DNA of 64,000 nt from Thermoprotei archaeon (GTDB taxonomy: Archaea; Thermoproteota; Thermoprotei; Thermoproteales; B15-G16), in NCBI GenBank assembly GCA_003649205.1, contig QMRC01000002.1, forward strand, positions 128,001 to 192,000, read 5' to 3'. The position numbers and the translations under genes were made by a program. The notes under the pieces were generated by a model, which was not told the DNA's origin, did no database searches, and worked only from the letters and a program-made list of their open reading frames with translations. Shown one piece after another: positions 30,328 to 57,063 of the stretch; position 1 is the stretch's first letter, and every line of letters begins with the position of its first letter.

Positions 30328-30420
30328 GGGGCCGTCGTCTAGCCTGGACTAGGATGCCAGCCTGGGGAGAAACCCCGCCCAGAACGCTGGTGAGCCCGGG
30401 TTCAAATCCCGGCGGCCCCA
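30328..30420 (+). tRNA. tRNA-Pro(GGG) with 17-nt intron at 37/38 (30368-30384)
   Basis: Acceptor stem GGGGCCG/CGGCCCC, anticodon stem CCAGC/GCTGG, T arm GGTTCAAATCC, BHB helix CTGG/CCAG. Confidence 0.93.
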
Positions 30421-30472: not shown

Positions 30473-31678
30473 TTAATCTCTCCCCAGAAAGTCAATAGCT
30501 TGCCTCACGTGTCGTGCTAAGTCATCGAGACCAAATACTATACTAAGCCGCTGTAGTCTTTCAAGCCACTCGACGTGATGTCTACTCGCCCGGAATTCAG
30601 CAAAATACTTCCTATACTTCTCTGAATGATAATAATGAACTCTTTCAGCTGGTACCTTAAGGAGGTTAACTGCTAGCTCTTTGAACGGCTCTACCTGTCC
30701 TAGTCCTACACATCTTACAATGACGTACTTCTTGCCACACTTCCTCCTAACTAAATATATTCTAACTCTCTCCTGAAGTAATTTTCTCAAGTCATCTCGA
30801 CTGAGCCCTACACCCTTGATAATCCTCAGTTTAGCATTTCGTCTTCTATGCCTCAACTCCATGAGATAGAGGAGACAGTTTTTGCGCATGTGCTCTATTG
30901 AGAATCTTATCCTGAAGTACCTACTTGGTCTCCAATTCTCTTTTATTTCACCTAGGGTGTAGTCTATGTACTTCATTTCTTTGAGTTTCTCTAAGACCTG
31001 TAGGATAGGTCGTAGCTTATGTTCACTACATCTAACGTAAATTGAGCAATGTACCCAGCCATGTTTATCCATGCGTACATTAACCGTGCCATCTCCGTCT
31101 ACTAGACCTGATAAGAATTCAGCAACTTCATAGTAGGTATTAGGAAAGCAAACAACTCCTCTTCTTAGGCAGGTCACGATAGTAGTAACTTCTGGATCTT
31201 TAACTCTTAGGTACAACATGGGTTTTACTTCGTGAGGTAACACGTGTATACATCCAAGTCTAACATAGAGTCTTGGGTATGTCTTCAGTAGTATTGCACA
31301 GAGCTCCTTGTCTGTACTAGCAAAGCGTATGTATGGTCCCAACACAGAACCATCGGTCAGTGCTAATCCCACTCTATACCATACGTTGCTCATTGAAGTA
31401 TTCTTTACAGTGATTTCCTCAACGAACTTACTGAATTCTCTCCTTAAGTACACTACCCTCTCATTGATGCAGTACCTAGCACTACGTGTCCTCGATCTAG
31501 CCACTATAACCAAAGAAGGTATATGTTTTATCTGCTCTCTCAGTTCTCTCGCTTTTTGCTTTAGTTGTTCTAGCTCTTCTTTGGTGAAGTATCTGTGTAT
31601 TAACTCCATTACTTTGCTATGTAGTTTCTCTACGAATTCATCTATTTCATCGTACTTGATGGTGATTCTCGATTTCAC
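30473..31678 (-). CDS. free-standing double-motif LAGLIDADG endonuclease-like protein
   Basis: VGLALTDGS and FLSGLVDGDG; basic composition; no intein termini. Confidence 0.8.
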   Translation of the reverse strand: MKSRITIKYDEIDEFVEKLHSKVMELIHRYFTKEELEQLKQKARELREQIKHIPSLVIVARSRTRSARYCINERVVYLRREFSKFVEEITVKNTSMSNVWYRVGLALTDGSVLGPYIRFASTDKELCAILLKTYPRLYVRLGCIHVLPHEVKPMLYLRVKDPEVTTIVTCLRRGVVCFPNTYYEVAEFLSGLVDGDGTVNVRMDKHGWVHCSIYVRCSEHKLRPILQVLEKLKEMKYIDYTLGEIKENWRPSRYFRIRFSIEHMRKNCLLYLMELRHRRRNAKLRIIKGVGLSRDDLRKLLQERVRIYLVRRKCGKKYVIVRCVGLGQVEPFKELAVNLLKVPAERVHYYHSEKYRKYFAEFRASRHHVEWLERLQRLSIVFGLDDLARHVRQAIDFLGRD

Positions 31679-32441: not shown

Positions 32442-32897
32442 CTAGCTCATGGCTTTGCCTCTCCTCTCGAGCTTCTTCGAGATCCATCCTTCATTTACTT
32501 CTACTAGTTCCCATTCCTTCTTGAATTCTTGAAAGTACTTCTTGGCTTCTATCCAGAATCCATTGTCGTACACTACAATACCGTGTTCGAGGGCATCTAG
32601 TACTGCTATGTCGAAGTTCTTTAGTGCTGTGTAGAACTCGTCTTCTGTGTATATCCATGGTTGTACCATTGGGGTGTGGGGCATAAGCTTGAATCTCTCT
32701 AATCCCTTTGGTGCTGATTTGAGTACGATGAGGATATCTATATCGCTCCAAGGTTTCCAGCATCCTCTAGCTCTAGAGCCAAATACCACTATTGACCTAA
32801 CGTTACTTCCTAGTCTCTTCAGTACTTCATCCCTAAACTTCAGTACGTAGACTCTGACATCTGTACCGAGTTCATCAGTACCTAAGTACTTAAGCAC
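32442..32897 (-). CDS. MNT nucleotidyltransferase antitoxin
   Basis: VFGSRARG..SDIDIL. Confidence 0.9.
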   Translation of the reverse strand: MLKYLGTDELGTDVRVYVLKFRDEVLKRLGSNVRSIVVFGSRARGCWKPWSDIDILIVLKSAPKGLERFKLMPHTPMVQPWIYTEDEFYTALKNFDIAVLDALEHGIVVYDNGFWIEAKKYFQEFKKEWELVEVNEGWISKKLERRGKAMS

Positions 32898-33265
32898 CTC
32901 ATCACCTCCGATACAACTTTTCTAGCTAATTCAATAGCTTTCTTAGCTACTGTCTCCGTGTACTCGATTCCATATCTCTTCCTAGCGTCAGGATAACGTG
33001 AAGCGTAGTAGTGTATCGTCAATTCTCTAAGCTCTTCATCACTCACTGTTAGCTCTAGTCCATATGCTCTAGCTCTTGAGTACAGTAGACATAGGTCATG
33101 TATTCTGAGGAAGTTGCCATGACGTAATAGGTATGCTTTGAGAATGTGTTGAATAGCTTGTTCAGCGTGAAAGCAAGCATATGCGTAATCTCCTACATAA
33201 TACCTCTCCTCTGCTCTCTTGAGCTCTGAGCGACTACTCTCAATCCAGTCCTCTACTGTAGCCAT
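32882..33265 (-). CDS. HEPN toxin
   Basis: ACFHAEQA..LKA, HDL, YYASRYPD. Confidence 0.9.
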   Translation of the reverse strand: MATVEDWIESSRSELKRAEERYYVGDYAYACFHAEQAIQHILKAYLLRHGNFLRIHDLCLLYSRARAYGLELTVSDEELRELTIHYYASRYPDARKRYGIEYTETVAKKAIELARKVVSEVMRCLST

Positions 33266-33359: not shown

Positions 33360-34334
33360 TTAAGCTTTCCTGCATTGTTTCATCGACTCTATGATCTTGA
33401 CTACTTCTCTAGCGAGTTTGATCTTGGATTTTAGATCAGTCATTACTATGTTGCTTGTGATCACGTAGATTTCGAGTTCCTTACTTATCCTCTCGCCTAC
33501 TTCTCTATCTCTCACATCTACTACCATGGCGTCTACGTAGTCTCTAAGTATTTCAGCTACTGAGTAGCTCGATGGTTCGTAACCTATTGCTTTTAGGAAT
33601 TTATGGAGTGGTCCTGAGAATGGTCTATTACCTACTATTGGTGATATCGCTACTACAGGTACTTCACCGCGTAGCTCCTTTATCTTCTCACCTAGTCCCT
33701 GTACCTTCAGTATAGGTAGTATGCTATTTACCGTGTTACTTGGTCCTATGATTATGGCGTCTGCTTGTTCTAGTGCTGTGATTACGTCTCTTGTTACCTT
33801 TGCTTTCTCTAGTCCTAGGAATGTTATTCCGTGTACTTCAGGTTCCATTCTGTACTTGACTAAGTACTCCTGTATGTGGAGGTTACCTATGTTCGTGAGT
33901 ACGTAGGTTTCTACGTGGTTATCTGTTGCTGGTAGTACTGTGGCTCTGATACGTAGCTTACTTGCTAGGTACTTCGTTACCTGCGTTAGTGTGTACCCTC
34001 TCTTCATGAGTAGTGTCCTTGTAATGTGTGTTGCTAGGTCTCTATCACCGATGTTGAACCATGTCCAGTCTAGTCCGTACTGTTTTGCTTGTTGTAGGAA
34101 GTTGAAGGTGTCTTCTTTGATTCCCCAGTACTTACCTGTATCGAGGATGTTTGCGAAGAGGTATAGTACTGTATCTACGTCAGGTGCTATGTAGAGGTCA
34201 TTCCACCAGAAGTTATCTGCTACGTTGACTACGACAGTTATATCTTCTTCAGGGACGACATGTCTTAGACCTTCGAGTAGTTTGGGCGTTCCTGTTCCAC
34301 CGCTTAGAACTACGAGCTTCACCTTGATTCCCAC
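33360..34334 (-). CDS. cofD: 2-phospho-L-lactate transferase
   Basis: LSGGTGTPKLL, PDVDTVLY, WGIKEDTF, IGDRDLATH, IIGPSN. Confidence 0.95.
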   Translation of the reverse strand: MGIKVKLVVLSGGTGTPKLLEGLRHVVPEEDITVVVNVADNFWWNDLYIAPDVDTVLYLFANILDTGKYWGIKEDTFNFLQQAKQYGLDWTWFNIGDRDLATHITRTLLMKRGYTLTQVTKYLASKLRIRATVLPATDNHVETYVLTNIGNLHIQEYLVKYRMEPEVHGITFLGLEKAKVTRDVITALEQADAIIIGPSNTVNSILPILKVQGLGEKIKELRGEVPVVAISPIVGNRPFSGPLHKFLKAIGYEPSSYSVAEILRDYVDAMVVDVRDREVGERISKELEIYVITSNIVMTDLKSKIKLAREVVKIIESMKQCRKA

Positions 34335-34430
34335 TTTGTTTGTGTTGCTTGGGATTTTTAGTTAAGTGCCGTGTCTACTCCTTGGGGTAGGCTCAAATAG
34401 ATGGGTTGTTACTTGTGTTGAGGGGTTGGG

Positions 34431-35408
34431 ATGTGTTCTCAAGTCTCTATCTCTATCCTGGTTGAGCGTGGTCTATGTTCTAGCTGTGGTGCTTGTGCTG
34501 CAGTGTGTCCCTTCTCAGCTATTGAGTTTCCAGAGCCTTTCTCATTACCTAGGGTAATTGGTGATAAGTGTAGGTTGTGTGGTCTCTGCTATAGGATCTG
34601 TCCTCAGGTAGGTATTGTTGATGAGGTTAGGGGGAGAGAGGTTAAGCCGTTGGCTACGTACATGGCTAGGTCTACTCTAGCTGAGGTTAGGGGGGTTGCT
34701 CAGTGTGGTGGTGTTGTCACTACATTAGCTATGTACTTACTGGATAGGAGGTTCGTTGATGCTGTTGTGTCTGTTGGTAGGGATGAGTACTGGCGTCCAG
34801 TACCTAAGCTCATTACTGATAAGTTGGGGGTTCTCGAGGTAGCAGGTTCGAAGTATACCTACGTATCGGTTCTTACATTGTTGAGAGATGTCGTTAGAAG
34901 TGATGCTATTAGGTCGGTAGCTGTTATTGGTCTTCCCTGTCATATGAGAGCTATTGAGAAAATGAGGAGATTGAAGTTAGCTGCCTCTCAGAAAGTTAAG
35001 TACCTCATCAGCATCTTCTGCATGCACAACTTCGAATATGGTGTAGTGAAGTACATTGTTGAGAAGTTTGGTCTCGATATCAAGTCCATCTCTAAGATGG
35101 ATATAAAGAGGAGGTTCATAGTTAAGTTAGTGGATGGTAGGGTTCTCGAGGTACCTCTCAAGGAGTTAGATCAGTTCGTTAGAGCTTGCTGCCGTAGCTG
35201 TCCAGAGTTTGTCTCCACAATAGCAGATGTCTGTGTCGGTAGTGTAGGTGCTGAAGAAGGTTGGAGTACCGTATTCGTGATGTCTGAGAGAGGTAGAGGA
35301 ATTGTTGAAGATGCTGTGAGAGATCAATACCTTGAGGTTAAGGAGCTACCTGAAAAGGCCATGAAGATTGTGGCGAAGTTAATCAGTATGAAGGTTGGAA
35401 GTAGATAG
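34431..35408 (+). CDS. F420-binding FrhB/FdhB/FpoF-family protein with N-terminal 2x[4Fe-4S] domain
   Basis: CSSCGACAAVCP, CRLCGLCYRICP, GGVVT, AGSKY, GLPC, CRSC. Confidence 0.9.
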   Translation: MCSQVSISILVERGLCSSCGACAAVCPFSAIEFPEPFSLPRVIGDKCRLCGLCYRICPQVGIVDEVRGREVKPLATYMARSTLAEVRGVAQCGGVVTTLAMYLLDRRFVDAVVSVGRDEYWRPVPKLITDKLGVLEVAGSKYTYVSVLTLLRDVVRSDAIRSVAVIGLPCHMRAIEKMRRLKLAASQKVKYLISIFCMHNFEYGVVKYIVEKFGLDIKSISKMDIKRRFIVKLVDGRVLEVPLKELDQFVRACCRSCPEFVSTIADVCVGSVGAEEGWSTVFVMSERGRGIVEDAVRDQYLEVKELPEKAMKIVAKLISMKVGSR

Positions 35409-35468
35409 TAATAACTCAAGTAGCTAAACTTTATTTCCTGAACCAATGTCAGTTAGAGAGGGATCTAG

Positions 35469-37511
35469 TTGAGTAAGCCACTTCACGTCAAGATCGGTAA
35501 GCTCGAGTCCCCTCCCTTAGCTGCTGAGAACATTGATCTGGTCATCGGCTCTGTAGTTATTGAGGAGGAGTGGGAACCAACTGGTCCTGCTTCAAGACCT
35601 TCACTTCCAATGCTGAGGGCTTGGGATCTATTCCTCTTGAAGAGGTATGAACCTATGTACGTAGTTGAGAATAAGCTACAGCACGCAAAGACCTTACTCA
35701 CACTCACGGTATCCGGTGCATTAGCCTACCTAGCACTAGCTAAGAGAAGGCTTAGAGCTGCGTACCGTAGGTTAGGTGAGGATGCCCCAATTGAGTTAGG
35801 TGTTGCTGTTGAGGCTCCACTCACTAGGTTACTGATAGGTATTAGGCCAAAGGTATTGACTGAGCTTGAGGAGCCCCTGAGGTATGCTGAGGAGCAGATA
35901 GTCGAGATCAGTGCAGCTATCCACAGTAATCAGGAAGCTAGTATCGAGGACTTGGAGTCAAAGATGTTTCACATAGGTACAGCTACGCTACTGCTAACTG
36001 AGGTAGCTGAGATAGCTAATTTAATGCTAGTTCCGAAGGGTATTAAGGTACCTGAAAAGCTTGAGTTTGGAAAGGCACTCATTGACTTCACGAAACCTGT
36101 AGTACTTATCCTCGGTGATGTTCCTGAGGTAGTAGATGTTGTTGAGTACTGTGAGAGAAGTGGGTATATCGATAAGATCGAGATCGTGACTGGTGGATGC
36201 TATGCACTAGACACCGTTAGGGTTGGTAAGTACTTGGTTAAGGTCGTTGGTACGCTCGATGACGTTAGGGATGTTGTCGGTAGAGGACTTGTGGACGTAC
36301 TCATCGTTGGTGAGCAAGGTGCTATACCAGACATAGTTGAGAAAGCCAAGGAGAAGGGTACTGTGGTGATTACGACAACAGAGAGAGCTTACCTAGGTCT
36401 ACCAGACCTTACAGGTGTGGATACTGAGAAGATAGTTGAAGCTGTTAAATCAGGTACAGTGAGGGGATTTGCTGTCTTGGATGCACAGAAGTTAGCTGAG
36501 GTAGTACCTAGAGTAGCACTGGTAGTTTATGAAGCTAGAAAGGAAGTGAAGCCTAAAGCTCTTGAGGAGGTAAAGGAGGTCTTTAGCAGGGAGAAGTACG
36601 TAATGAAGCCACCACTCGGACCTGTTCCTGAACCTGTTATCAGGGATCTAGGTGTTCCTGTCGTGATGGGTACTATACCTGGTATAATAGCTGTTGTTGG
36701 ATGTAGTAACTATGGACCTAGCTCACTTGAGGAACTTGGTGAGATCCTTGAGGAGCTGTGTAAGAGGAACTTCCTAATCCTCACGACAGGCTGTACAGCA
36801 ATAGCACTGTCCAAGTACAGGACTAAGGAGGCAGGTCACGGGCTTTACGAGGACTTCCCAGATCAGACATTGGTGATGGGATCTCCAACAGCTATAGCAC
36901 ACATAGCTGGACTCGCACTCAAGGTACCACAGATCTTCGCTAGAATGCCGCTTAGATCAAATGCACCTGCACTAGTCGACTACCTACTTAATAGAGTTGG
37001 TGCTGTTGGTCTAGCATGGTCAGCACCGCTCGAGAGGGATGCAGCAATTGCATGGGGCGTACTAAGGTGTGGTGTACCAGTTGTTGCTGGTCCAGCACTA
37101 GCACCTGTTGGTAGGTTATTCCTTGGTGATCCAACTAAGCCAGAGAAGTACGTGATATACGACAAGAGGACGAAGAAGAAGGTATTCGTTGGACCAGTAC
37201 CTGAGCACCTACTGTGTCTAGCTAAGAACAAGGACGAAGCACTGATACTGATAACTAAGCTAGTTATGAGGGCTAACGATGGTCACAGCGCTAGGGCTAT
37301 CAAGGCATGTCACTACGTCGACATGTACAGGAAAGTACATGGAACACTACCACCAGACCTACCGAACTACATCAGAGCTGAAGCAGACATAGCGATAACG
37401 GTCAAGGACGAGGTCATGAAGTTCCTACAGGAGAAGGGCTGGAAACCACTAGAGGAACCATTGGTAGACCCAACGTGTCTACCGCTACTCCAAGAAATAA
37501 CAAGTTTATAA
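35469..37511 (+). CDS. cdhA: degenerate archaeal CO dehydrogenase alpha subunit (ACDS alpha)
   Basis: EEEWEPTGP, VVMGTIPGIIAVVGC, DYLLNRVGAVGLAW, GPVPEHL, DPT conserved; cluster motifs missing. Confidence 0.9.
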   Translation: MSKPLHVKIGKLESPPLAAENIDLVIGSVVIEEEWEPTGPASRPSLPMLRAWDLFLLKRYEPMYVVENKLQHAKTLLTLTVSGALAYLALAKRRLRAAYRRLGEDAPIELGVAVEAPLTRLLIGIRPKVLTELEEPLRYAEEQIVEISAAIHSNQEASIEDLESKMFHIGTATLLLTEVAEIANLMLVPKGIKVPEKLEFGKALIDFTKPVVLILGDVPEVVDVVEYCERSGYIDKIEIVTGGCYALDTVRVGKYLVKVVGTLDDVRDVVGRGLVDVLIVGEQGAIPDIVEKAKEKGTVVITTTERAYLGLPDLTGVDTEKIVEAVKSGTVRGFAVLDAQKLAEVVPRVALVVYEARKEVKPKALEEVKEVFSREKYVMKPPLGPVPEPVIRDLGVPVVMGTIPGIIAVVGCSNYGPSSLEELGEILEELCKRNFLILTTGCTAIALSKYRTKEAGHGLYEDFPDQTLVMGSPTAIAHIAGLALKVPQIFARMPLRSNAPALVDYLLNRVGAVGLAWSAPLERDAAIAWGVLRCGVPVVAGPALAPVGRLFLGDPTKPEKYVIYDKRTKKKVFVGPVPEHLLCLAKNKDEALILITKLVMRANDGHSARAIKACHYVDMYRKVHGTLPPDLPNYIRAEADIAITVKDEVMKFLQEKGWKPLEEPLVDPTCLPLLQEITSL

Positions 37512-37588
37512 GTCTCGAAGCAAGAGATTATGAAGGTGATTTACCTATCTCCAAACAACTATATAGTTGGTTAGGGTGATGTGTAGCT

Positions 37589-39010
37589 ATGTCCTCTAGC
37601 ATAGTACCCGGATTTCCCGTCGACATTGGACCTGCGTACGAGGGTCAGAGAATTAGGAGACCAGACATGTACGTTGAGTTCGGTGGACCCAAGATAGCTC
37701 AGAAGTTCGAGCTACTAAGGGTTAAGAAGTTGGAAGAGGTTGAGGATGAGAAGGTTGAGGTTATTGGACCTGACCTACCTGAGCTGAAAGAGGGTGAGAG
37801 CTATCCAATCGGTATAGTCATTGAGGTAGCTGGTGCAAAGCTCACACCTGAACTAGAGGGTGTTCTCGAGAGGAGAATTCACGACTTCCTAAACTACATC
37901 GACGGTGTCATGCACGTAGGTTCGAGAGCAGACATTTGGATTAGGATAAGTAAGAAGGCATACAGTAAAGGTCTCAATACACTGAAGCTAATTGGTCTAG
38001 CTCTGATCAAGCTATTCAAGAAGACCTTCCCAATGATTGAGAAAGCACAGGTAAAGTTCATAACAGATCTTGAGAAGGTTAAGGAGTACCTAAGTGAGGC
38101 AATGAAGGTTTACGAGGAGAGAGATAAGAGGGCACTAGCTCTAACAGATGAGGAGGTAGATACATTCTACGGCTGTATCCTATGCCAGTCCTTCGCTCCT
38201 GGTCATGTCTGCATAATAACTCCTGAAAGACCATCAGCATGCGGTGCTGTGTCCTGGTTTGATGCTAGAGCAGCAGCCATGATCGATCCCAAGGGACCAA
38301 TATTCCCAGTACCTAAAGGTAAGTGTCTGGATCCAGTTAAGGGAGAGTACGAAGGTGTTAACGAGAAGGTTAAGGAGAAGTCACTTGGGAATGTAGAGAA
38401 GGTGTACCTATACAGCATGTTCGACTATCCAATGACATCCTGTGGTTGCTTCGAAGCAGTAGCATTCTACATACCTGAGGTCGATGGTATAGGTATAGTC
38501 CATAGAGGATTTAGAGGTAAGACACCTATTGGACTAACGTTTGGTCAGTTAGCAGAGCAGGTCGGTGGTGGTAGACAGGTAAGTGGCTTCCTAGGCATAT
38601 CGATACTGTACATGAGGTCCAGGAAGTTCCTAATAGCTGATGGTGGATGGAAGAGAGTTGTGTGGCTACCGAGCGAGCTTAAGGAGAAGCTAAAGGATGT
38701 GATACCACCAGATCTCTACGATAAGATAGCTACTGAGAAAGATGTATCAACTGTTGAGGAGCTAAAGAAGTGGTTGATCGAGAAAGGTCACCCAGTAGCA
38801 GAGAAGCTAAAGGCTGCTGAAGCAGCACCCCCAGCTGCACCACCTGCCGCACCTCCCGCACCTGCCGCTCCAGCTCCTGCACCAGCACCGCCAACAGCGG
38901 TTACGGTACCAGCAGCGGCACCAGCAGCACCACAGGTACCCATTAGGATAGTGCTGCACAATGCTAGGATATACATCAAGAGAGTAGTTGTTGTGAAGAA
39001 GGGTACCTAG
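37589..39010 (+). CDS. cdhC: acetyl-CoA synthase (ACDS beta)
   Basis: FYGCILCQSFAPGHVC, CGA, TSCGCFE; Pro/Ala linker and C-terminal beta peptide. Confidence 0.97.
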   Translation: MSSSIVPGFPVDIGPAYEGQRIRRPDMYVEFGGPKIAQKFELLRVKKLEEVEDEKVEVIGPDLPELKEGESYPIGIVIEVAGAKLTPELEGVLERRIHDFLNYIDGVMHVGSRADIWIRISKKAYSKGLNTLKLIGLALIKLFKKTFPMIEKAQVKFITDLEKVKEYLSEAMKVYEERDKRALALTDEEVDTFYGCILCQSFAPGHVCIITPERPSACGAVSWFDARAAAMIDPKGPIFPVPKGKCLDPVKGEYEGVNEKVKEKSLGNVEKVYLYSMFDYPMTSCGCFEAVAFYIPEVDGIGIVHRGFRGKTPIGLTFGQLAEQVGGGRQVSGFLGISILYMRSRKFLIADGGWKRVVWLPSELKEKLKDVIPPDLYDKIATEKDVSTVEELKKWLIEKGHPVAEKLKAAEAAPPAAPPAAPPAPAAPAPAPAPPTAVTVPAAAPAAPQVPIRIVLHNARIYIKRVVVVKKGT

Positions 39011-39021
39011 GGTGTTCATTC

Positions 39022-39240
39022 ATGAGTACGAGACAGGAGGGGAAGAGGAGTACTGAGCAAGGTAGTGAACTAGGTACTGATCTCCTCAACTTCCTCCTTT
39101 CTCTTGTTGGTTTAGGAGCTACTGTTGAACTTCACGGTGTGACGATAACAGCTGAGAAGGTTGTCATAACGAGAATTGAGGGGAGTGGTAGTGAGTCAGG
39201 AGAGAAGGGTAAGGGAAGAGAGGAGAGAAGCAGAAGCTAG
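39022..39240 (+). CDS. small protein resembling the CdhD N-terminal / CdhC C-terminal peptide
   Basis: DLLNFLLSLVG..TVELHGVTITAEKVVI; ATG 11 bp after the cdhC stop. Confidence 0.65.
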   Translation: MSTRQEGKRSTEQGSELGTDLLNFLLSLVGLGATVELHGVTITAEKVVITRIEGSGSESGEKGKGREERSRS

Positions 39241-40561
39241 GAAGGTTGTTGCGGATTTACTCAAGCTACTGAGTACAGCTGATAGACTAGAGTTCGAAGA
39301 CGTTGTGATTGATGCTAGGGAGCTAACTATCGAGTTCATACCCCCATCAGCTCCAACAGGTCCAACGTACCTGAAGCTAACCGTTGAGCCGGTTGGTGTA
39401 CCACAGCCACCAGGTGGTAAGCTAGAGTTCATCCTTGAGGTAACTCCAACAGGCTTTAGATTACTCACACCACCAGTACCTGGTGCTGTACCTATTACAG
39501 TACCGCCCATAGCTGCTGTCCCTAAGCTTGTTGAGTTTATTAAGGTGGAGTACAAGTACCCAAGTCTTGAGTTCAAGGGGTCAATTGCCGAGGTCAAGAT
39601 AGGTGCTACGAAAGCTGAAGGTGGTACGAGATCTACAGTTATTAAGATTGGTGGTGACAATAAGCCCCCTATCTTCAGGTTCCTAGGTTACGTAGTTAAT
39701 AGACCGAAGGTAGCACTAGACGTATTCGATACAACTATCCCACTACCTAGAGCTGTGAGAGATGCGTACGGTGATGTTCTCTCAAATCCCTATGAGTGGG
39801 CAAAGAAGTGTATCAACGTGGTTAAGGCAGATCTAATATCGTTTCACCTAGTCAGTACTGACCCCGGTATCAAAGATGTATCACCACAAGAAGCAGCTAA
39901 AGAGGTTGAGCAGATGCTCCAGACAATAGACATTCCATTCATTGTCGGTGGTTGTGGTAATCCAGTTAAGGACCTAGAGACCTTCGCGAAGGTAGCTGAG
40001 GTAGCTGCTAACGAGAGACTCGTACTGGCATCAGTTACCTTCGGTATGAATATACCTAAGTACGTTGAGGTTGTTAAGAAGTTCAATCACGTAGCACTAG
40101 CCCTCATATTCATGGATGTGACTCAGGCTAAAGCCATATGTCGTAGGTTGATGGATCTAGGTCTCAGCAAGGATAGGATAATTCTCGACCCGACAACGGC
40201 TGCATTAGGGTATGGTACAGAGTACTCCTTTAGTGCAGCTGAGAGAATTAGGTTAGCTGCTCTTAGAGGTGACGAGGATCTACAGGTACCAATGAGCTGT
40301 GCCGCGACAAATGCTTGGGCTGCTAGAGAGGCGTGGATGAAGCTAGATGCGTGGGGTCCAAGGGAGTGGAGAGGTCCTCTCTGGGAAGCTGTTACAGCTA
40401 TGACGATGTTGCTTGCTGGTGCGGATCTCTTCATGATGATGCATCCACTAGCAGCGTCCATAGTTAAGTCTGTTACTGAGTTCATGGAGAAGCAGACGGT
40501 TAGGGATGTTATTGAGAAGGAGGTTTCTGAGTACTATAGCTGGGTGACTAAGAGGTATTGA
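39176..40561 (+). CDS. cdhD: corrinoid Fe-S protein small subunit (ACDS delta); start probably near 39191
   Basis: IGATKAEGGTR, HLVSTDP, DPTTAALGYG, TNAWAAREAW, RGPLWE, MMMHP. Confidence 0.95.
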   Translation: MRGVVVSQERRVREERREAEARKVVADLLKLLSTADRLEFEDVVIDARELTIEFIPPSAPTGPTYLKLTVEPVGVPQPPGGKLEFILEVTPTGFRLLTPPVPGAVPITVPPIAAVPKLVEFIKVEYKYPSLEFKGSIAEVKIGATKAEGGTRSTVIKIGGDNKPPIFRFLGYVVNRPKVALDVFDTTIPLPRAVRDAYGDVLSNPYEWAKKCINVVKADLISFHLVSTDPGIKDVSPQEAAKEVEQMLQTIDIPFIVGGCGNPVKDLETFAKVAEVAANERLVLASVTFGMNIPKYVEVVKKFNHVALALIFMDVTQAKAICRRLMDLGLSKDRIILDPTTAALGYGTEYSFSAAERIRLAALRGDEDLQVPMSCAATNAWAAREAWMKLDAWGPREWRGPLWEAVTAMTMLLAGADLFMMMHPLAASIVKSVTEFMEKQTVRDVIEKEVSEYYSWVTKRY

Positions 40562-40577
40562 GAGGAGGTGACCTTAC

Positions 40578-42008
40578 GTGCCTAGGAGGATTAAGCCTCT
40601 TGATGTCTATAGGTTACTTCCGAAGCTAAATTGCGGTAAGTGTGGTGAACCGACGTGCATGGTCTTTGCTACTAAGCTGATTGAGCGACAGACTACACTC
40701 GATAAGTGTAGGCCTCTCTTCGAGGATCCTAGATTTAGGGAGAACTTGAGGAAGTTAATGGAGTTGTTGAGGCCTCCTGTTAAGGAGGTTACCATAGGTG
40801 TTGAACCTAATGCTGTTAAGGTCGGTGGCAAGGACGTTGTGTATAGGCATGAATGGACTTGGAGGAATCCAACAGCTATAGCTCTCGATGTTCACGATGG
40901 GATGGGTGATGAAGAGGTTGAGAGGAGGATTAAGTTTGTTAATGAGTGGTTCTATGAGAGGATTGAGAAGAGACTCGGTATTGACTTACTTGCTGTTAGG
41001 TGTGTCTCTGGTAGTGCTGAGCGATTTGTGAAGTTTGTCGAGAAGGTATGTAAGTTAACTAGTAAACCGTTGATCGTGTGTACTCTTGATCCAGCTACTC
41101 TCGAGGAAGTATTGAAGAGGATTGGTTCTCGAAGACCTCTAATCTATGCTGCTACTGAGAGAAATTGGAGGGAGTTCGCTGATCTAGCTGTTAAGTGGTC
41201 TTGTCCTTTGGTTGTTTCAGCTCCTAACGACCTATCTAAGTTGAAGAGCTTAGTGGTCTCGATAGTGAAGAACTTTGGTTATGAGGAGCTGGTACTGGAT
41301 CCAGGTACCTTGGTTAGTAATGGTGGTTTCCTAGATACGATATCGAACTTTACGGCTCTCAGGTACTCAGCTATTGAGTTTGGTGAGAGGGAAGTAGGTT
41401 TTCCACTCATGGCTATACCAGCTACTGTCTGGATCTTCGAGAGTGGTGGTACTGAGGAGCTGGAGTTTAGGGAAGCAATTATAGCGTGTTCGTTAGTAGC
41501 TAGGTACGCGGATATTCTAGTAATGCATAGCTTAAGCCCATGGGTCTACATGGCTGTTCTCTGTCTGAGGGACTGCCTGTACACTGATCCACGAGTTCCA
41601 CCATCAGTTAAACCTGGACTGTACGAGGTGGGTAAACCAACACCTGAATCTCCTCTCGTAGTTACCTGTAACTATGCACTCACAGTATCCCTAGTGAGAG
41701 GAGATCTTGAGAAGAGTGGTATCGATGCTTGGCTACTGGTGATAGATACTGAGGGTACCTCTGTAGCATCAGCTGTTGCTGGTAAGAGATTCACAGCGGA
41801 TAAGATAGCTGAGGCGGTTAAGGAGCTTAAGTTAGAGGAGAAGGTCAAGCACAGGTCGCTGGTGATACCTGGCTACGCAGCTAAGATAGCTGGTGAACTA
41901 GAGGATCTACTACCAGGGTGGAGGGTCTTCGTAGGTCCTAGAGAGAGTAGTGATCTACCTAAGTTCATTAGGGAGATTTGGAGTAAGGAGGTCCTGGGTA
42001 AGGCGTAG
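40578..42008 (+). CDS. cdhE: corrinoid Fe-S protein large subunit (ACDS gamma)
   Basis: LPKLNCGKCGEPTCMVFA, YTDPRVP, NYALT, VGPRES. Confidence 0.97.
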   Translation: MPRRIKPLDVYRLLPKLNCGKCGEPTCMVFATKLIERQTTLDKCRPLFEDPRFRENLRKLMELLRPPVKEVTIGVEPNAVKVGGKDVVYRHEWTWRNPTAIALDVHDGMGDEEVERRIKFVNEWFYERIEKRLGIDLLAVRCVSGSAERFVKFVEKVCKLTSKPLIVCTLDPATLEEVLKRIGSRRPLIYAATERNWREFADLAVKWSCPLVVSAPNDLSKLKSLVVSIVKNFGYEELVLDPGTLVSNGGFLDTISNFTALRYSAIEFGEREVGFPLMAIPATVWIFESGGTEELEFREAIIACSLVARYADILVMHSLSPWVYMAVLCLRDCLYTDPRVPPSVKPGLYEVGKPTPESPLVVTCNYALTVSLVRGDLEKSGIDAWLLVIDTEGTSVASAVAGKRFTADKIAEAVKELKLEEKVKHRSLVIPGYAAKIAGELEDLLPGWRVFVGPRESSDLPKFIREIWSKEVLGKA

Positions 42009-42010
42009 GC

Positions 42011-42787
42011 ATGAGTATACTGATTGCTGTAAGCGGTAAGGGTGGTGTAGGGAAGACCGTCATCACAGCACTCATGCTAAAGGCAATTACTGAGGAAGGT
42101 ATTGAGGATAGGGCTATCCTAGTGATTGATGCTGATCCGGATGCTAATCTAGCAGACGTACTTGGCATACCACTTGATGTAAAGAAAACTCTTGGTTACG
42201 TAGCTACTGAGTTCAAGAAGGAGCTAGAGAAAGCCTCTATATCCGAGGTCGATAAAGCTACAGTACTTCAGACACGAGTACTTGAGGTAGTTCAGGAACT
42301 ACCTAAATTCGACTTCCTCGTTATGTGGAGAACTGAAGGTGAGGGCTGTTATTGCTTTGTTAACGCAGTTCTCTCCAATGTTCTTGAGTGGTTAATGGAT
42401 CAGTACGACATAATCCTAGCTGATTGTGAAGCAGGGTTAGAGCACTTCAATAGACGAGTTTTCAAAGCAATAGACTACTTAGTACTGGTTACTGATCAGA
42501 GTAAAGCGAGCTTCGATACTGTTAAGAGAGTTCTAGATGTTGTTCATGAAGTGGGTATAAGGGTTAGGAATGTGGGTATCGTAGTCAATAAGTTCAGAGA
42601 ACACTATAGAGAACGAGTTACGAAACTTGCTAGTGAAATTGGAGTAGAGATTTGGGGATTCGTACCATATAGTGAGGCCATTGAGGAATTTATGTCTGAA
42701 GCTAGATCACTGATGGAGTTACCGAGAGATGAAGCTGCTTATGTAGCTGTGAAGGAGGTACTCAAGAAAAAAATAGGTATTTTGTAG
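42011..42787 (+). CDS. cooC: CooC/AcsF nickel-insertion ATPase
   Basis: GKGGVGKT, DADP, GEGCYC, DCEAGLEH. Confidence 0.92.
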   Translation: MSILIAVSGKGGVGKTVITALMLKAITEEGIEDRAILVIDADPDANLADVLGIPLDVKKTLGYVATEFKKELEKASISEVDKATVLQTRVLEVVQELPKFDFLVMWRTEGEGCYCFVNAVLSNVLEWLMDQYDIILADCEAGLEHFNRRVFKAIDYLVLVTDQSKASFDTVKRVLDVVHEVGIRVRNVGIVVNKFREHYRERVTKLASEIGVEIWGFVPYSEAIEEFMSEARSLMELPRDEAAYVAVKEVLKKKIGIL

Positions 42788-42796
42788 GTTCCCGTT

Positions 42797-43795
42797 CTAG
42801 CTCCTTAACTTCTTGACTATTTCACCGATTAGTGCAAGAGCTTCTTTCTTCTTCGGACCTAGTGGTGATCCCATTACAATGTGAGTTATTCCAGCCTTGA
42901 TTAACTCTCTAAGTTTCTCAATGCACTCATCTGGTGAGCCTGAAATTGAGAAGTAGTCTAGCATTAAGTCATCTACGTTCTCAGCAGCTTTCTTGAAGTC
43001 TCCCTTAGCTAGTGCTTCTCTGATAGTGCTTACCTTACCTAGATCTATTCCTCGTTCCTTCAGTAATGTATCTGGTGCTCCTGCAACTATGAACGCTACT
43101 ACTAGTCTAGCTGCATCCTTTGCCTTCTTTGAATCTGGTGCTACTGAGAAGCAGGTATACGCTACAATGTCTATCTTGCTGAAGTCCTTTCCAGCTGCTT
43201 CAGCACCCTTCTTAATTAGTGGTATTGCCTTCTCGAAGTCCTTGGGGTGTGATGCGTTTATCAGTACTCCATCACCTAGTTGACCAGCTAGCTGAAGCAT
43301 CTTAGGTGCTTGGGCACCTATGTAAATTGGTATTGCTCTACTTGGCTTGAAGTTTAGTCTTGCTCCCTTAAGCTTGAAGAACTCACCTTCGAAGTTAACT
43401 ACTTCACCAGCAAGTAATCTCCTAATGACTGTCACAGCTTCTCTAACAGCTGTTAGTGGTTTCTTCCTCTCAATACCAATAGCTTCGAGTGTTGCCTTAT
43501 CACCTGAACCTATACCGAGAATAGCTCTTCCACCACTAACCTCATCTAGTGTAGCTACTGCAGCAGCTGTCCAAGCTGGGTGAATAACATATGGGTTTGT
43601 AACACCTACACCTAGAGTTATTTTACTTGTCTTGATAGCCATCATGGTTAATGCGATGTAGACAGTACGGTTGCAGTAGTGATCTGTTACCCATATACTA
43701 TCTAGGCCATTCTGCTCGGCAATGATTGCATACTCGACTAATGTTGAAATAGCTCTATCAGGAACCAGCTCTATACCGAACTTCAAGTTAACCAC
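42797..43795 (-). CDS. mer: F420-dependent methylene-H4MPT reductase
   Basis: KFGIELVP, WVTDHY, GVTNPY, IYIGAQAPKML, DGVLINASHPKD, GSPLGP. Confidence 0.88.
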   Translation of the reverse strand: MVNLKFGIELVPDRAISTLVEYAIIAEQNGLDSIWVTDHYCNRTVYIALTMMAIKTSKITLGVGVTNPYVIHPAWTAAAVATLDEVSGGRAILGIGSGDKATLEAIGIERKKPLTAVREAVTVIRRLLAGEVVNFEGEFFKLKGARLNFKPSRAIPIYIGAQAPKMLQLAGQLGDGVLINASHPKDFEKAIPLIKKGAEAAGKDFSKIDIVAYTCFSVAPDSKKAKDAARLVVAFIVAGAPDTLLKERGIDLGKVSTIREALAKGDFKKAAENVDDLMLDYFSISGSPDECIEKLRELIKAGITHIVMGSPLGPKKKEALALIGEIVKKLRS

Positions 43796-44087
43796 ACAGT
43801 ATCCCCACCTATGGGGGTCCAGACTTATTGAAGAGAGAAATACATTGTTATTAAAAATTACGATGTAGCGAATTTACTTAATTGCTAGTGCTAGTGGTAA
43901 TCAATGGTTGGTTTGATTTGGTGTGATTAATTGCTTTTAGTAACTGATGGGTTTGCTTGAGCTACTATAATTGGTAATTTTCCTCTCGTGTATCTGCTTC
44001 AAGTCAAGTACTTATACTTCTGAAGCTGTTTCTGGTTGAGGGTTAAGTACATTAGGTAACGAAGTCCATACCTAGCTACTGTAGTCT

Positions 44088-44870
44088 TTGGTGATCTCCA
44101 TGGGTGAAGTACCTAAGGTAGAGATAATTGGGTTACTCGACTTTCCCGATGTTAAGCCAGGTGATGACCTTGGAAAGCTAATTGTCGAGGTTGCTAGGAG
44201 AAACGGTATTGAGTTCATGGATGGTGATGTAATTGTTATCGCTCAGAAGATTGTCTCTAAGTCCGAGGGTAGAATAGTTGATCTGCAGACCGTTAAACCG
44301 TCTGAGTATGCAGTGAAGTTGGGTGAGGAACTAGGTAAGGACCCTAGATTAGTTGAGGTGGTGCTTAGGGAATCTCATGAGGTTTTGAAGGCTGAGGCAG
44401 GGCACTTGATCTCGCTGACAAGACATGGATTCGTATGTGCTAATGCTGGTGTTGATCTATCTAATGTAGATGGTAGTGGGTTAAGAGTAACGTTACTACC
44501 TGTAAATCCGGATGAGTCAGCTAGGAGAATTAGGGAGAGAATTAAGGAGTTGACTGGTAGGGATGTTGCTGTTGTCATAACAGATACCTTCGGTAGACCA
44601 TTTCGTGAAGGTGTTGTGAATTTTGCAATAGGTATATCCGGTATCCATCCATTTCGTGACTACATAGGTAAGGTAGATAGGTACGGATACGTAATGAGAG
44701 TGACTAAGGTCTGCATCGTTGATGAGGTAGCTGCAGCGGCGGAGCTAGTTATGGGACAAGGTGCTGAGGGTATTCCAGTTGTAGTAATTAGAGGGCTCAG
44801 GTACGAGAGAAGGGATGACGCAAGTATTCAGGAAGTTGTTATGCGTAAGGAGAAGTGGTTATTCAGGTAA
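44088..44870 (+). CDS. cofE: coenzyme F420-0:L-glutamate ligase
   Basis: KIVSKSEG, CANAGVDLSN, ITDTFGRPFR, DEVAAAAELVMG. Confidence 0.95.
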   Translation: MVISMGEVPKVEIIGLLDFPDVKPGDDLGKLIVEVARRNGIEFMDGDVIVIAQKIVSKSEGRIVDLQTVKPSEYAVKLGEELGKDPRLVEVVLRESHEVLKAEAGHLISLTRHGFVCANAGVDLSNVDGSGLRVTLLPVNPDESARRIRERIKELTGRDVAVVITDTFGRPFREGVVNFAIGISGIHPFRDYIGKVDRYGYVMRVTKVCIVDEVAAAAELVMGQGAEGIPVVVIRGLRYERRDDASIQEVVMRKEKWLFR

Positions 44871-44921
44871 TCAGCTCGTCGCGAGCTCGATCACTGCTCA
44901 CGCTGGGACGGCTTCATCACC
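44871..44921 (-). ncRNA. box C/D sRNA candidate
   Basis: GTGATGA-AGCCGTCCCAGC-GTGA-GCA-GTGATCGA-GCTCGCGACGAG-CTGA. Confidence 0.7.
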
Positions 44922-45032
44922 AAAACCTCATAGAGATACGTAGGTATATATTCCTTACCTTAGTGTTGACAGAAAAGGGGTAAACGCTTATAAAGGGCAT
45001 GTAGTCCTATTCTACGGCACCAACCACCTTGG

Positions 45033-46442
45033 GTGATGTTAATGAGTAGCAAATCCGCAGAGAAGAGTCCTATCTACTACCTCTTCAACCCTCGTAGCAT
45101 TGCCGTGATAGGTGCTTCTCGTGATCCCAAGAAGATAGGTTATCAGATTCTCAAGAACATCATTGAGTATGGATTTAAGGGAAAGGTCTATCCAGTCAAC
45201 CCGAAAGCTGATGAGATTCTCGGACTAAAGTGCTACAAATCCATTCTCGATATACCTGATGAAGTTGATGTCGCTGTCATATCGATACCTGCTCAGTACG
45301 TATTACCTGTTGTTGAGGAATGTGGTAAGAAAGGTGTTAAGGCTCTAATAGTGATATCCTCTGGCTTTGGTGAGGTAGGTAATGTCGAGCTTGAGAGAAA
45401 GCTAGTTGAGACAGCTAGGAAGTACGGAATGAGGATACTTGGACCCAATATCTTCGGTCTCTACTACGGACCTGCTAGGTTGAACGCAACCTTTGGTCCT
45501 AAGGAGGTTATTCCAGGTAACATAGCATTTGTCTCACAGAGTGGTGCTCTAGGTATAGCACTCATGGGGTGGACCATTGCAAAGGGCGTAGCTCTCTCAG
45601 CTGTTGTCAGCATGGGTAACAAGGCAGATATAGATGATGCAGATGTCCTTGAGTACTTCGAAACTGATCCTAACACCAAGGTCATACTCATATACATGGA
45701 GGGTATTAGACCAGGTCTCGGTAGGAGGTTTGTTGAAGTGGCTAGGAGAGTATCTAAGAAGAAGCCAATCATAGTTATCAAGGCTGGTAGAACAGAGAGA
45801 GGTGCTGCTGCAGCAGCGTCGCACACTGGTGCGCTTGCAGGAGCAGATGCAATATACAATGCGGCATTTAAGCAAGCAGGTGTGCTCAGAGCGATAGGTT
45901 TTGAAGAAGCATTTGATTGGGCTAAAGCACTGAGCATGCTACCACCACCTAAGGGTGAGAACGCAGTAATCATAACGAATGGTGGTGGTGCTGGGGTAAT
46001 GGCTACTGATGCAGCTGTTGAGTGCGGTATTCGATTAATGGAGATGCCACCAGATCTACAGGAGAGGTTCAGGAAGTACATGCCACCATTCGGGAGCCCG
46101 AAGAACCCAATAGACTTGACAGGTCAAGCAAGTGAAGAGGCGTACAAAGGTGCTCTCCTAGAAGCATTCAATGAACCTAGAATTCACTCCATAATACTAC
46201 TGTACTGTCAGACAGCAATTACAGATCCAGAGGTGCTTGCTGATAAGATAATTGAGGCTTGGAATGAAGCTAAGGAGAGAAAGCCTATGGTAGTCTCATT
46301 CATTGGTGGAATTGAGTGTGATAGAGCTATGGCGAAACTAGATAAGGCTGGTATCCCAGCATACCCATCTCCAGAGAGAGCTGTTAGTGCTCTCAGTGCT
46401 GTCTATAAGTGGGCTAGATGGGCAGGTTACGTGAAGGAGTAA
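45033..46442 (+). CDS. acdA: ADP-forming acetyl-CoA synthetase alpha subunit
   Basis: IAVIGAS, YPVNP, ILGPN, SQSGA, SHTGALAG, NPIDLTG. Confidence 0.95.
   Translation: MMLMSSKSAEKSPIYYLFNPRSIAVIGASRDPKKIGYQILKNIIEYGFKGKVYPVNPKADEILGLKCYKSILDIPDEVDVAVISIPAQYVLPVVEECGKKGVKALIVISSGFGEVGNVELERKLVETARKYGMRILGPNIFGLYYGPARLNATFGPKEVIPGNIAFVSQSGALGIALMGWTIAKGVALSAVVSMGNKADIDDADVLEYFETDPNTKVILIYMEGIRPGLGRRFVEVARRVSKKKPIIVIKAGRTERGAAAAASHTGALAGADAIYNAAFKQAGVLRAIGFEEAFDWAKALSMLPPPKGENAVIITNGGGAGVMATDAAVECGIRLMEMPPDLQERFRKYMPPFGSPKNPIDLTGQASEEAYKGALLEAFNEPRIHSIILLYCQTAITDPEVLADKIIEAWNEAKERKPMVVSFIGGIECDRAMAKLDKAGIPAYPSPERAVSALSAVYKWARWAGYVKE

Positions 46443-56942: not shown

Positions 56943-57063
<121 letters not shown>

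Follow-up and report, generated by a model that had tools for sequence, protein, structure and literature searches.

Gene content and order of the locus

We analysed a 64,000-nucleotide stretch of the genome of an uncultured Thermoprotei archaeon from hot sediment (the window; G000, contig C2, positions 128001-192000), which carries what we read, on balance, as a remodelled archaeal operon for acetyl-CoA decarbonylase/synthase (ACDS), with a pseudo-carbon monoxide dehydrogenase (pseudo-CODH) as its alpha subunit and with the epsilon subunit lost. G000 is a metagenome-assembled genome (MAG) of 2.07 Mb in 31 contigs, 93.8% complete and 4.2% contaminated; a second genome of the same genus, G001, is 71% complete. 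Coordinates are window positions unless a contig is named, and family calls were made by profile score against the curated cut-off. A preliminary description of this DNA had reported a contiguous run from cofD to acdA at 33360-46442, and the order was reproduced: ten genes occupy this interval, all scoring as the families for which they were named.

The centre of the run encodes ACDS proteins, all on the plus strand. The alpha paralogue, hereafter CdhA* (35469-37511), is a cysteine-depleted protein of 680 residues that scores 531.7 bits against TIGR00314 (cut-off 781.3), in three separate stretches. Downstream lie cdhC for the beta subunit, acetyl-CoA synthase (ACS; 37589-39010; TIGR00316, 640.5 bits against 355.95), cdhD for delta, the small subunit of the corrinoid Fe-S protein (39176-40561; TIGR00381, 389.4 bits against 252.9), and cdhE for gamma, its large subunit with an N-terminal FeS domain (40578-42008; NF003195, 538 bits against 306; PF04060 at 51.6 bits, and PF03599). 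A CooC/AcsF-type nickel-insertion ATPase follows (42011-42787), with a P-loop and a C-Y-C (C-x-C) motif and with CooC1 as its best solved relative (3kje_A, E 6.2e-19). Between cdhC and cdhD, a 72-residue open reading frame (39022-39240, plus strand) extends across the cdhD start in a different frame. One portion of it is similar to the CdhD N-terminal region, and the frame could represent an alternative start, a frameshift or what is left of a duplication of that region.

Genes of coenzyme F420, C1 and acetate metabolism flank this core. To its left are cofD for 2-phospho-L-lactate transferase of F420 biosynthesis (33360-34334, minus strand; TIGR01819, 328.6 bits against 257.45; PF01933) and a gene for an F420 reductase of the FrhB family that carries a 2x[4Fe-4S] ferredoxin domain at its N-terminus (34431-35408, plus; Fer4, FrhB_FdhB_N and FrhB_FdhB_C). 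To its right are mer for the F420-dependent methylene-tetrahydromethanopterin (methylene-H4MPT) reductase (42797-43795, minus; TIGR03555, 458.6 bits against 348.7), cofE for F420-0:glutamate ligase (44088-44870, plus; TIGR01916, 293.8 bits against 180.65) and acdA for the alpha subunit of an ADP-forming acetate-CoA ligase (45033-46442, plus; TIGR02717, 597 bits against 567.15), the beta subunits of which are encoded elsewhere. The region has a single close public record, 94% identical, and a contig scan gave no wider synteny.

Loss of catalytic motifs in CdhA*

To place the metal ligands of CdhA*, we built an alignment of 54 rows with a motif table, including 40 canonical CdhA rows and nine members of the CdhA* family; ligand positions were assigned from this alignment and from the residue order in Table 2 of Inoue et al. 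2019 (PMC6344411). The canonical proteins are nearly uniform: all 40 rows carry the B-cluster cysteine pattern, Cys1-5, the acid-base lysine and an E/F insert of 85-93 residues with 8-9 cysteines, and 38 of the 40 have the C-cluster ligand histidine. The CdhA* family, consisting of the window protein and P0002-P0009 (635-683 residues, 44-54% identical, mean column identity 68%), departs from this pattern in every one of its nine members. The B/D-cluster cysteine region is deleted, the E/F ferredoxin insert is replaced by a linker of 14-21 residues with no or one cysteine, and GExG stands where canonical CdhA has DEQC (Cys2 to Gly) and GSP where it has GSC (Cys5 to Pro). The catalytic acid-base lysine is lost as well, its SQK motif reading LER, NEA or DES. 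Kept in all nine are the ligand histidine (H152) and the equivalents of Cys1, Cys3 and Cys4, which, as C244, C412 and C442, are the only invariant cysteines of the family.

The remainder of the protein is recognizably CdhA. Matches to solved CdhA have E values of 1e-88 to 1e-112, and the alignment to the solved ACDS alpha subunits (8riu, 9c0q, 3cf4) skips just two segments, that of the B/D cysteines and the E/F insert. An AlphaFold model, with an input of only nine sequences (pLDDT 71, pTM 0.75), matches 9c0r, 9c0q, 9c0s, 8riu and 3cf4 at TM 0.76-0.79. CdhA* therefore passes as a protein of CdhA fold and of clade A descent, and fails on the TIGR00314 score cut-off, the C-cluster ligand set, the B and E/F clusters, the acid-base lysine and an adjacent CdhB. 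The preliminary description had marked the gene as degenerate and the operon as being without a working CODH. The mark is justified, as the open frame is uninterrupted and most metal-ligand motifs are gone; the second claim is borne out by the missing B/D/E/F motifs and the replacement of Cys2, Cys5 and the catalytic lysine. Judged by these motifs, the CODH subunit of the operon cannot be a working Ni-CODH.

A maintained gene in a rare family

Could cdhA* simply be a decaying pseudogene? This was ruled out by its open frame, its conserved family and a dN/dS of 0.107 between G000 and G001, where cdhC gave 0.043, the frhB-like gene 0.150 and the second CODH of the genome, described below, 0.155. 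CdhA* is under purifying selection. G001 has the same order as the window (frhB-like, cdhA*, cdhC, cdhD). We also used two contigs from sequencing runs, X1 and X3; X1 may come from the source sample and would thus not be independent. X3, from a hydrothermal-vent run of another study (record 18), is 4,138 bases long, covers 35160-39303 at about 92% nucleotide identity and spans all of cdhA* and the cdhA*-cdhC junction. It has no indels inside cdhA*; those present fall in the spacers between genes or, without shifting the frame, in the Pro/Ala tail at the end of cdhC.

In a maximum-likelihood tree (quick method), the nine CdhA* proteins form one clade (support 100) that is nested in a set of 21 Thermoproteota CdhA rows (support 99). 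Its sister group, with a support of 84 and a long-branch warning, is made up of second CdhA paralogues found in g8, another genus of the order. These g8 paralogues (L017 = G028:C2; L019 = G022:C9) are without the ligand histidine and the D-cluster and keep Cys2-5, the lysine and E/F; in L019 the paralogue is followed directly by cdhC, without cdhB. They may represent an intermediate stage toward CdhA*.

The CdhA* family is rare. A CdhA match was found in 96 of 401 sampled genomes of the phylum, and, of the rows listed, G000 alone had one full-length match, to a frame of 680 residues. Among 41 relatives of the same order, a single full-length CdhA*-type match was seen in G000 and G001 only. Across 1.84 billion representatives at 50% identity, P0001 and P0007 alone scored above 1,100 bits, the next score being 529 bits. 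No CdhA match at all was found in 33 of the 41 relatives, which agrees with the preliminary view that such a module would be unusual for a crenarchaeal-type heterotroph. Motif erosion in clade A, as read from the aligned sequences, is not unique to this family and seems to have arisen several times: other eroded or insert-less CdhA-like groups (P0049/P0105, P0109, P0113, P0135) show other loss patterns, and P0049/P0105 keep the B/D cysteines while having lost the histidine and all five C-cluster cysteines.

We found no description of the CdhA* motif pattern in the literature searched, including the consulted parts of the main texts of PMC6344411, PMC13240472 and 10.1101/2025.09.14.676152, a scope that leaves supplements aside; Inoue Supplementary Table 1 (its 'others' class) and Lemaire Supplementary Figs 16-17 (zeta distribution) could bear on novelty. 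Within this literature, we rate the CdhA*-type ACDS as a previously undescribed variation on known ACDS.

ACS partners, the missing epsilon subunit and the F420 reductase

The partners of CdhA* show no comparable erosion. In CdhC, which scores above its family cut-off with the cysteine motifs in place, C196, C199, C208, C218 and C285-G286-C287 are invariant in alignment A3; we take the four cysteines ([4Fe-4S]) and the Cys-Gly-Cys motif to be the A-cluster. CdhD and CdhE likewise score above their cut-offs as a corrinoid Fe-S protein, with the N-terminal FeS domain in the large subunit. CdhC, CdhD, CdhE and the CooC-type chaperone look intact. The epsilon subunit is a different matter: whole-genome searches for CdhB (PF02552) found none in G000 or G001, and tblastn with three CdhB queries from the same order gave a best E of 1.4. 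In the phylum, cdhB follows cdhA in 29 of 29 sampled loci, and it stands directly after canonical cdhA in four of the 41 relatives (G020, G022, G028, G038).

Instead of cdhB, cdhC follows cdhA* here after a gap of 77 bases, an order kept in G001 and in two loci from metagenomes, L059 and L060. Of all parts of CdhA*, the C-terminal domain has been retained best, with an identity ratio to the canonical-canonical comparison of 0.73 against 0.54-0.68 elsewhere, the domain boundaries being approximate; its identity to canonical CdhA is 41.8%, compared with 22.9% for the second CODH. In Rossmann domain 2, identity is 73.2% within the CdhA* family and 68.9% among canonical CdhA. These two domains form the CdhC interface according to the consulted part of an ACDS preprint (10.64898/2026.07.07.736967), which also states that archaeal CdhA Rossmann domain 2 takes over the role of the bacterial A1 domain. 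Complex prediction with CdhC 1-410 and CdhA* 95-680 gave 0.42, 0.00 and 0.00 in its runs, with no folded controls, and counts as evidence neither way.

The FrhB-type gene upstream of cdhA* holds the same position in G001. Among solved structures, its product matches FwdI (8rja_E) at 163.1 bits and the zeta subunit of an F420-reducing CODH (8riu_B) at 141.9 bits over residues 11-321, its full length, and it scores equally well against the F420 domains of Fsr. The architecture, which FwdI shares, and the cdhA neighbourhood are those of a zeta subunit, while the score does not single out zeta over FwdI or Fsr. The system from which zeta is known, the F420-reducing CODH of Ca. Ethanoperedens thermophilum (8riu; PMC11493965), is alike in having an FrhB-type subunit with a two-cluster ferredoxin domain encoded with the cdh genes. 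There, according to the sections consulted, zeta is anchored at the alpha/epsilon junction and receives electrons from a working C-cluster (PMC11493965), whereas here epsilon is absent and alpha is clusterless. Because of these two losses, zeta wiring of the Ethanoperedens type cannot exist here; the FrhB-type protein would rather have a ferredoxin:F420 role serving Mer.

A putative second CODH and most of a methyl branch elsewhere in the genome

The preliminary description had treated the cluster as a self-contained module, and this did not hold: the genome has an ftr/fwd/mch operon, an MtrH cluster, acdB and a second CdhA-type CODH elsewhere. That cdhB, mtd, mch, ftr, fwd, mtr and mcr are not in the window was confirmed. 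Genome-wide searches located ftr, mch and fwdA on C5, located mtrH on C1, and returned no cdhB, mtd or mcrA on any contig.

The second CdhA-type (prismane-family) CODH is encoded on the same contig, 64 kb downstream (C2:229469-231544; 691 residues by the longest frame), and is also found in G001 at 88% identity. It has a four-cysteine B-cluster pattern without D-cluster cysteines, the histidine, Cys1-5, the lysine and an insert of 72-77 residues with 10-11 cysteines. It is highly divergent, scoring only 231 bits against TIGR00314, with 28-29% identity to the nearest other proteins and a tree branch of 4.2 changes per column. By its motifs, it is the only candidate in the genome for CO/CO2 conversion. 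The start of the gene overlaps the end of hypD (TIGR00075, 437 bits; L056 8385-11544 = G000:C2:228385-231544). No further hyp or coo gene adjoins it, and its neighbours are housekeeping genes (GAPOR-like AOR, G1P dehydrogenase, TatD, Thi4-like, TruA); a relation between a CODH beside hypD and the CO ligand of [NiFe] hydrogenases would be pure speculation. The C-cluster of each monomer in a Ni-CODH dimer depends on the B-cluster of its partner. A heterodimer of CdhA* with the second CODH was set aside on these structural grounds, CdhA* being without a B-cluster.

Most of the methyl branch lies on C5, in an operon of ftr, a CofE-like gene, fwdDB, fwdA, fwdC and mch, with MptN and LarB nearby. 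FwdD and FwdB are fused in one protein of 568 residues, and the CofE-like gene is divergent (PF01996, 49.6 bits; 294 residues; L057 12255-13139, minus strand = G000:C5:86255-87139). Whole-genome searches for Mtd found none in G000 or G001, while it is present in six of six genomes of g7 and g8 that bear the Wood-Ljungdahl pathway; tblastn with four same-order Mtd queries gave a best E of 0.64. The genome search also found no FolD/MtdA-type enzyme, no Hmd and no McrA. The CofE-like gene and two unannotated neighbours (342 and 374 residues) were considered as replacements for Mtd; no family match supports that role. A complete archaeal H4MPT Wood-Ljungdahl pathway is therefore not seen in this 93.8%-complete genome: Fwd, Ftr, Mch and Mer are present, and Mtd, Hmd and FolD/MtdA-type enzymes were not found.

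Further functions lie on other contigs. C1 carries MtrH, a B12-binding corrinoid protein, three URO-D-family methyltransferases and an MFS transporter (L058 6299-13505 = G000:C1:284299-291505), with a CRISPR-associated Csa2/Csa3 pair upstream. This arrangement is characteristic of demethylation systems, which transfer methyl groups to H4MPT. The beta-subunit gene acdB, for which the preliminary description had proposed a search, was found on C1 and C3, the two C3 copies being mirror images. Two kinds of [NiFe]-hydrogenase large-subunit genes are present. Contig C3 (291,428 bases) matches its reverse complement base for base over its whole length, which most likely reflects a fold-back error in assembly; this perfect palindrome doubles matches (acdB, a hydrogenase large subunit and a weak FwdA-like match) and inflates the genome size by about 146 kb.

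How much of a Wood-Ljungdahl pathway this amounts to can be read in several ways. The preliminary description had inferred a truncated variant using free CO, which an intact cdhAB and a full methyl branch elsewhere would have contradicted. Its gene-level observation stands, as do the dead operon CODH and the absence of CdhB and Mtd; self-containment fell, and the genome holds most of the methyl branch and one motif-complete CODH, which contradicts the inference only in part. If the pathway were truly truncated, acetyl-CoA would be split by ACS and the corrinoid protein, providing methyl- and methylene-H4MPT for biosynthesis and releasing CO, or else the two would condense external CO with methyl groups; in both cases there would be no link to CO2 through the methyl branch. 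Besides the missing Mtd and its missing substitutes, the dead operon CODH and the lost epsilon subunit, this reading gains from mer adjoining the cdh genes and from the precedent of Dehalococcoides mccartyi, as summarized in part of PMC7005905. However, the intact fwdDB-fwdA-fwdC, ftr and mch operon would then have no evident use for want of a methenyl/methylene link, which makes a true gap and a dehydrogenase that escaped recognition equally likely. The motif-complete CODH and the incompleteness of the MAG also speak against it, and we consider a true truncation rather unlikely.

Conversely, the pathway could be ordinary and complete, with a canonical cdhA-cdhB pair and mtd in unassembled DNA and CdhA* as an inconsequential extra paralogue. 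The completeness and contamination values leave room for this, the C3 palindrome shows that the assembly is imperfect, and genus g8 does carry two CdhA paralogues side by side. Yet all three of these genes are absent from G000 and G001 alike, the sole cdhC/D/E set seen is the one attached to CdhA*, and the independently assembled X3 contig has the same cdhA*-cdhC junction; we hold this explanation to be improbable.

Outside the cluster, its left border is formed by a HEPN and nucleotidyltransferase (MNT) pair directly left of cofD (32442-33265, minus strand), and its right border by a DUF7347 protein. Rfam identified two tRNA genes in the window, at 30328-30420 (plus) and 56946-57063 (minus), which with 93 and 118 bases probably bear introns; an ARAGORN run on the window returned zero tRNA genes. 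A 401-residue frame with a weak LAGLIDADG_3 match (30473-31678, minus) adjoins the first tRNA gene.

Proposed working of the remodelled complex

We propose, as the probable though by no means certain reading, that the ACDS operon has been remodelled around a pseudo-CODH alpha subunit, with loss of epsilon, and that it would work as follows. CdhA* would no longer interconvert CO and CO2, and would be kept as a structural partner that docks on CdhC and closes over it. This docking role is suggested by the conserved cdhA*-cdhC order, the retention of the C-terminal domain, the published interface map and the role ascribed to the A1 domain; binding of CdhA* to CdhC is accordingly a prediction by analogy. 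If CdhA* does not interconvert CO and CO2, the carbonyl carbon would come from, or go to, dissolved CO, and would not be tunnelled from a C-cluster belonging to that complex. CO/CO2 conversion would fall to the stand-alone divergent CODH downstream. Methyl-H4MPT, supplied by the adjacent Mer or by the MtrH/corrinoid/methyltransferase cluster using methylated substrates, would pass its methyl group to the corrinoid protein, and the ADP-forming acetyl-CoA synthetase, with AcdA from this cluster and AcdB from elsewhere in the genome, would turn acetyl-CoA into acetate and ATP. Supply and recycling of reduced F420 would fall to the FrhB-type protein, cofD and cofE. The direction of flux, toward acetyl-CoA synthesis or cleavage, cannot be told from sequence.

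A bolder version of this proposal is an ACS/corrinoid machine without any integrated CODH, in which a dead CdhA is kept only as a lid or dock for ACS, free CO is handled by a separate, fast-evolving CODH, and the pathway is cut at Mtd, leaving acetogenesis from CO and the methyl groups of methylated substrates, or cleavage of acetyl-CoA for C1 units. We offer it tentatively, as a possibility that falls well short of the probable.

Several observations weigh against the docking reading. In one subgroup of the family, at locus L061, CdhA* is isolated: its neighbours are genes for DUF2250, a YeiH-type membrane protein, Usp and TrmB, and the 10 kb downstream hold no cdhC. CdhA* at L062 is followed by another CdhA-like N-terminus; given these contexts, association with ACS is not universal in the family. 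The C-terminal domain is retained better than other parts by a modest margin. The absences are drawn from two MAGs, although canonical cdhAB or mtd on unassembled DNA is unlikely, and the second CODH, divergent as it is, is a CO dehydrogenase by prediction from its motifs. Finally, the three invariant cysteines and the histidine hint at a remaining metal site in place of a bare scaffold.

This last point leads to another reading, in which CdhA* holds a remodelled metal site of three cysteines and a histidine at the old C-cluster and has a non-redox role, either in binding, sensing or gating CO for the A-cluster or in regulation, as proposed for CODH clades C and D. The invariance of C244, C412, C442 and H152 across nine proteins of such low pairwise identity favours it, as do the higher conservation of Rossmann domain 2 than in canonical CdhA and the regulator genes beside the L061 member. 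Auxiliary or regulatory roles have indeed been proposed for CODH clades without CO/CO2 activity, in the portion consulted of 10.1101/2025.09.14.676152. But no electron-relay cluster is left, the nickel-binding Cys5 is proline in all nine members, the lysine is gone, and the kept residues could be structural. We regard such a site as doubtful; it is compatible with a scaffold role and does not exclude it.

Significance and comparison with known systems

CODH/ACS is among the oldest carbon-fixing machines, and a core feature of its working is taken to be the tunnelling of CO from C-cluster to A-cluster. A clusterless, conserved alpha subunit beside an intact ACS is a natural separation-of-function variant, and raises the question whether archaeal ACS needs CdhA as a structural partner independently of CO production. 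If ACS does work here without an integrated CODH, the system would be an archaeal counterpart of the Dehalococcoides solution, with the structural and catalytic roles of CdhA separable. It also adds a modified acetyl-CoA pathway to an order in which most of the genomes sampled are without the pathway. For genome surveys, the consequence is that scoring 'cdhA present' may overcall Wood-Ljungdahl capacity. A marine survey discards sequences without C-cluster ligands, as described in the part of PMC13240472 consulted, and surveys of this kind are blind to the CdhA* class for that reason.

Compared with the Methanosarcina ACDS (3cf4, 9c0q-9c0t), the window system has the same alpha fold, the beta, gamma and delta subunits with CooC, and the order alpha-beta-delta-gamma apart from epsilon. 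It differs in having no epsilon gene and an alpha subunit without the B/D/E/F motifs, Cys2, Cys5 and the lysine, scoring below the TIGR00314 cut-off. By sequence, four of the five ACDS subunits are thus shared, and alpha fails most of the tests that define its family.

The nearest functional precedent, by analogy, is the CODH-less ACS/CoFeSP of Dehalococcoides mccartyi, in which AcsB cleaves acetyl-CoA and CO leaves the cell, with no CODH (PMC7005905, citing Zhuang et al. 2014; consulted in part). Both systems have ACS and a corrinoid Fe-S protein, no functional CODH in the complex, and free CO, the last predicted from genes in our case. D. mccartyi, however, has no CODH gene, a bacterial AcsB and folate chemistry, whereas the archaeon of the window combines a degenerate alpha subunit with a CODH that is separate and divergent, with enzymes of H4MPT chemistry and with an acetyl-CoA synthetase that yields ATP.

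The nearest sequence precedents of CdhA* are groups A-4 and A-6 of CODH clade A (PMC6344411), which likewise have incomplete C-cluster and acid-base motifs and are still encoded with ACS genes. In the part of that study consulted, these groups are confined to bacteria and have the histidine and Cys1 changed with Cys2-5 and E/F kept; CdhA* is archaeal and has kept the histidine and Cys1 while losing Cys2, Cys5, the lysine and B/D/E/F. None of the six clade A groups in Table 2 of the same paper has the CdhA* pattern.

For the proposed role, the closest parallel is domain A1 of bacterial AcsB. Its fold is prismane/CODH-like and free of metal clusters; the domain keeps ACS in place against CODH and contributes to the closed state. 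A1 forms one polypeptide with ACS and touches a CODH that works, whereas CdhA* is a separate full-length polypeptide with no working CODH encoded beside it. By this analogy, CdhA* may do for archaeal ACS what A1 does for its bacterial counterpart.

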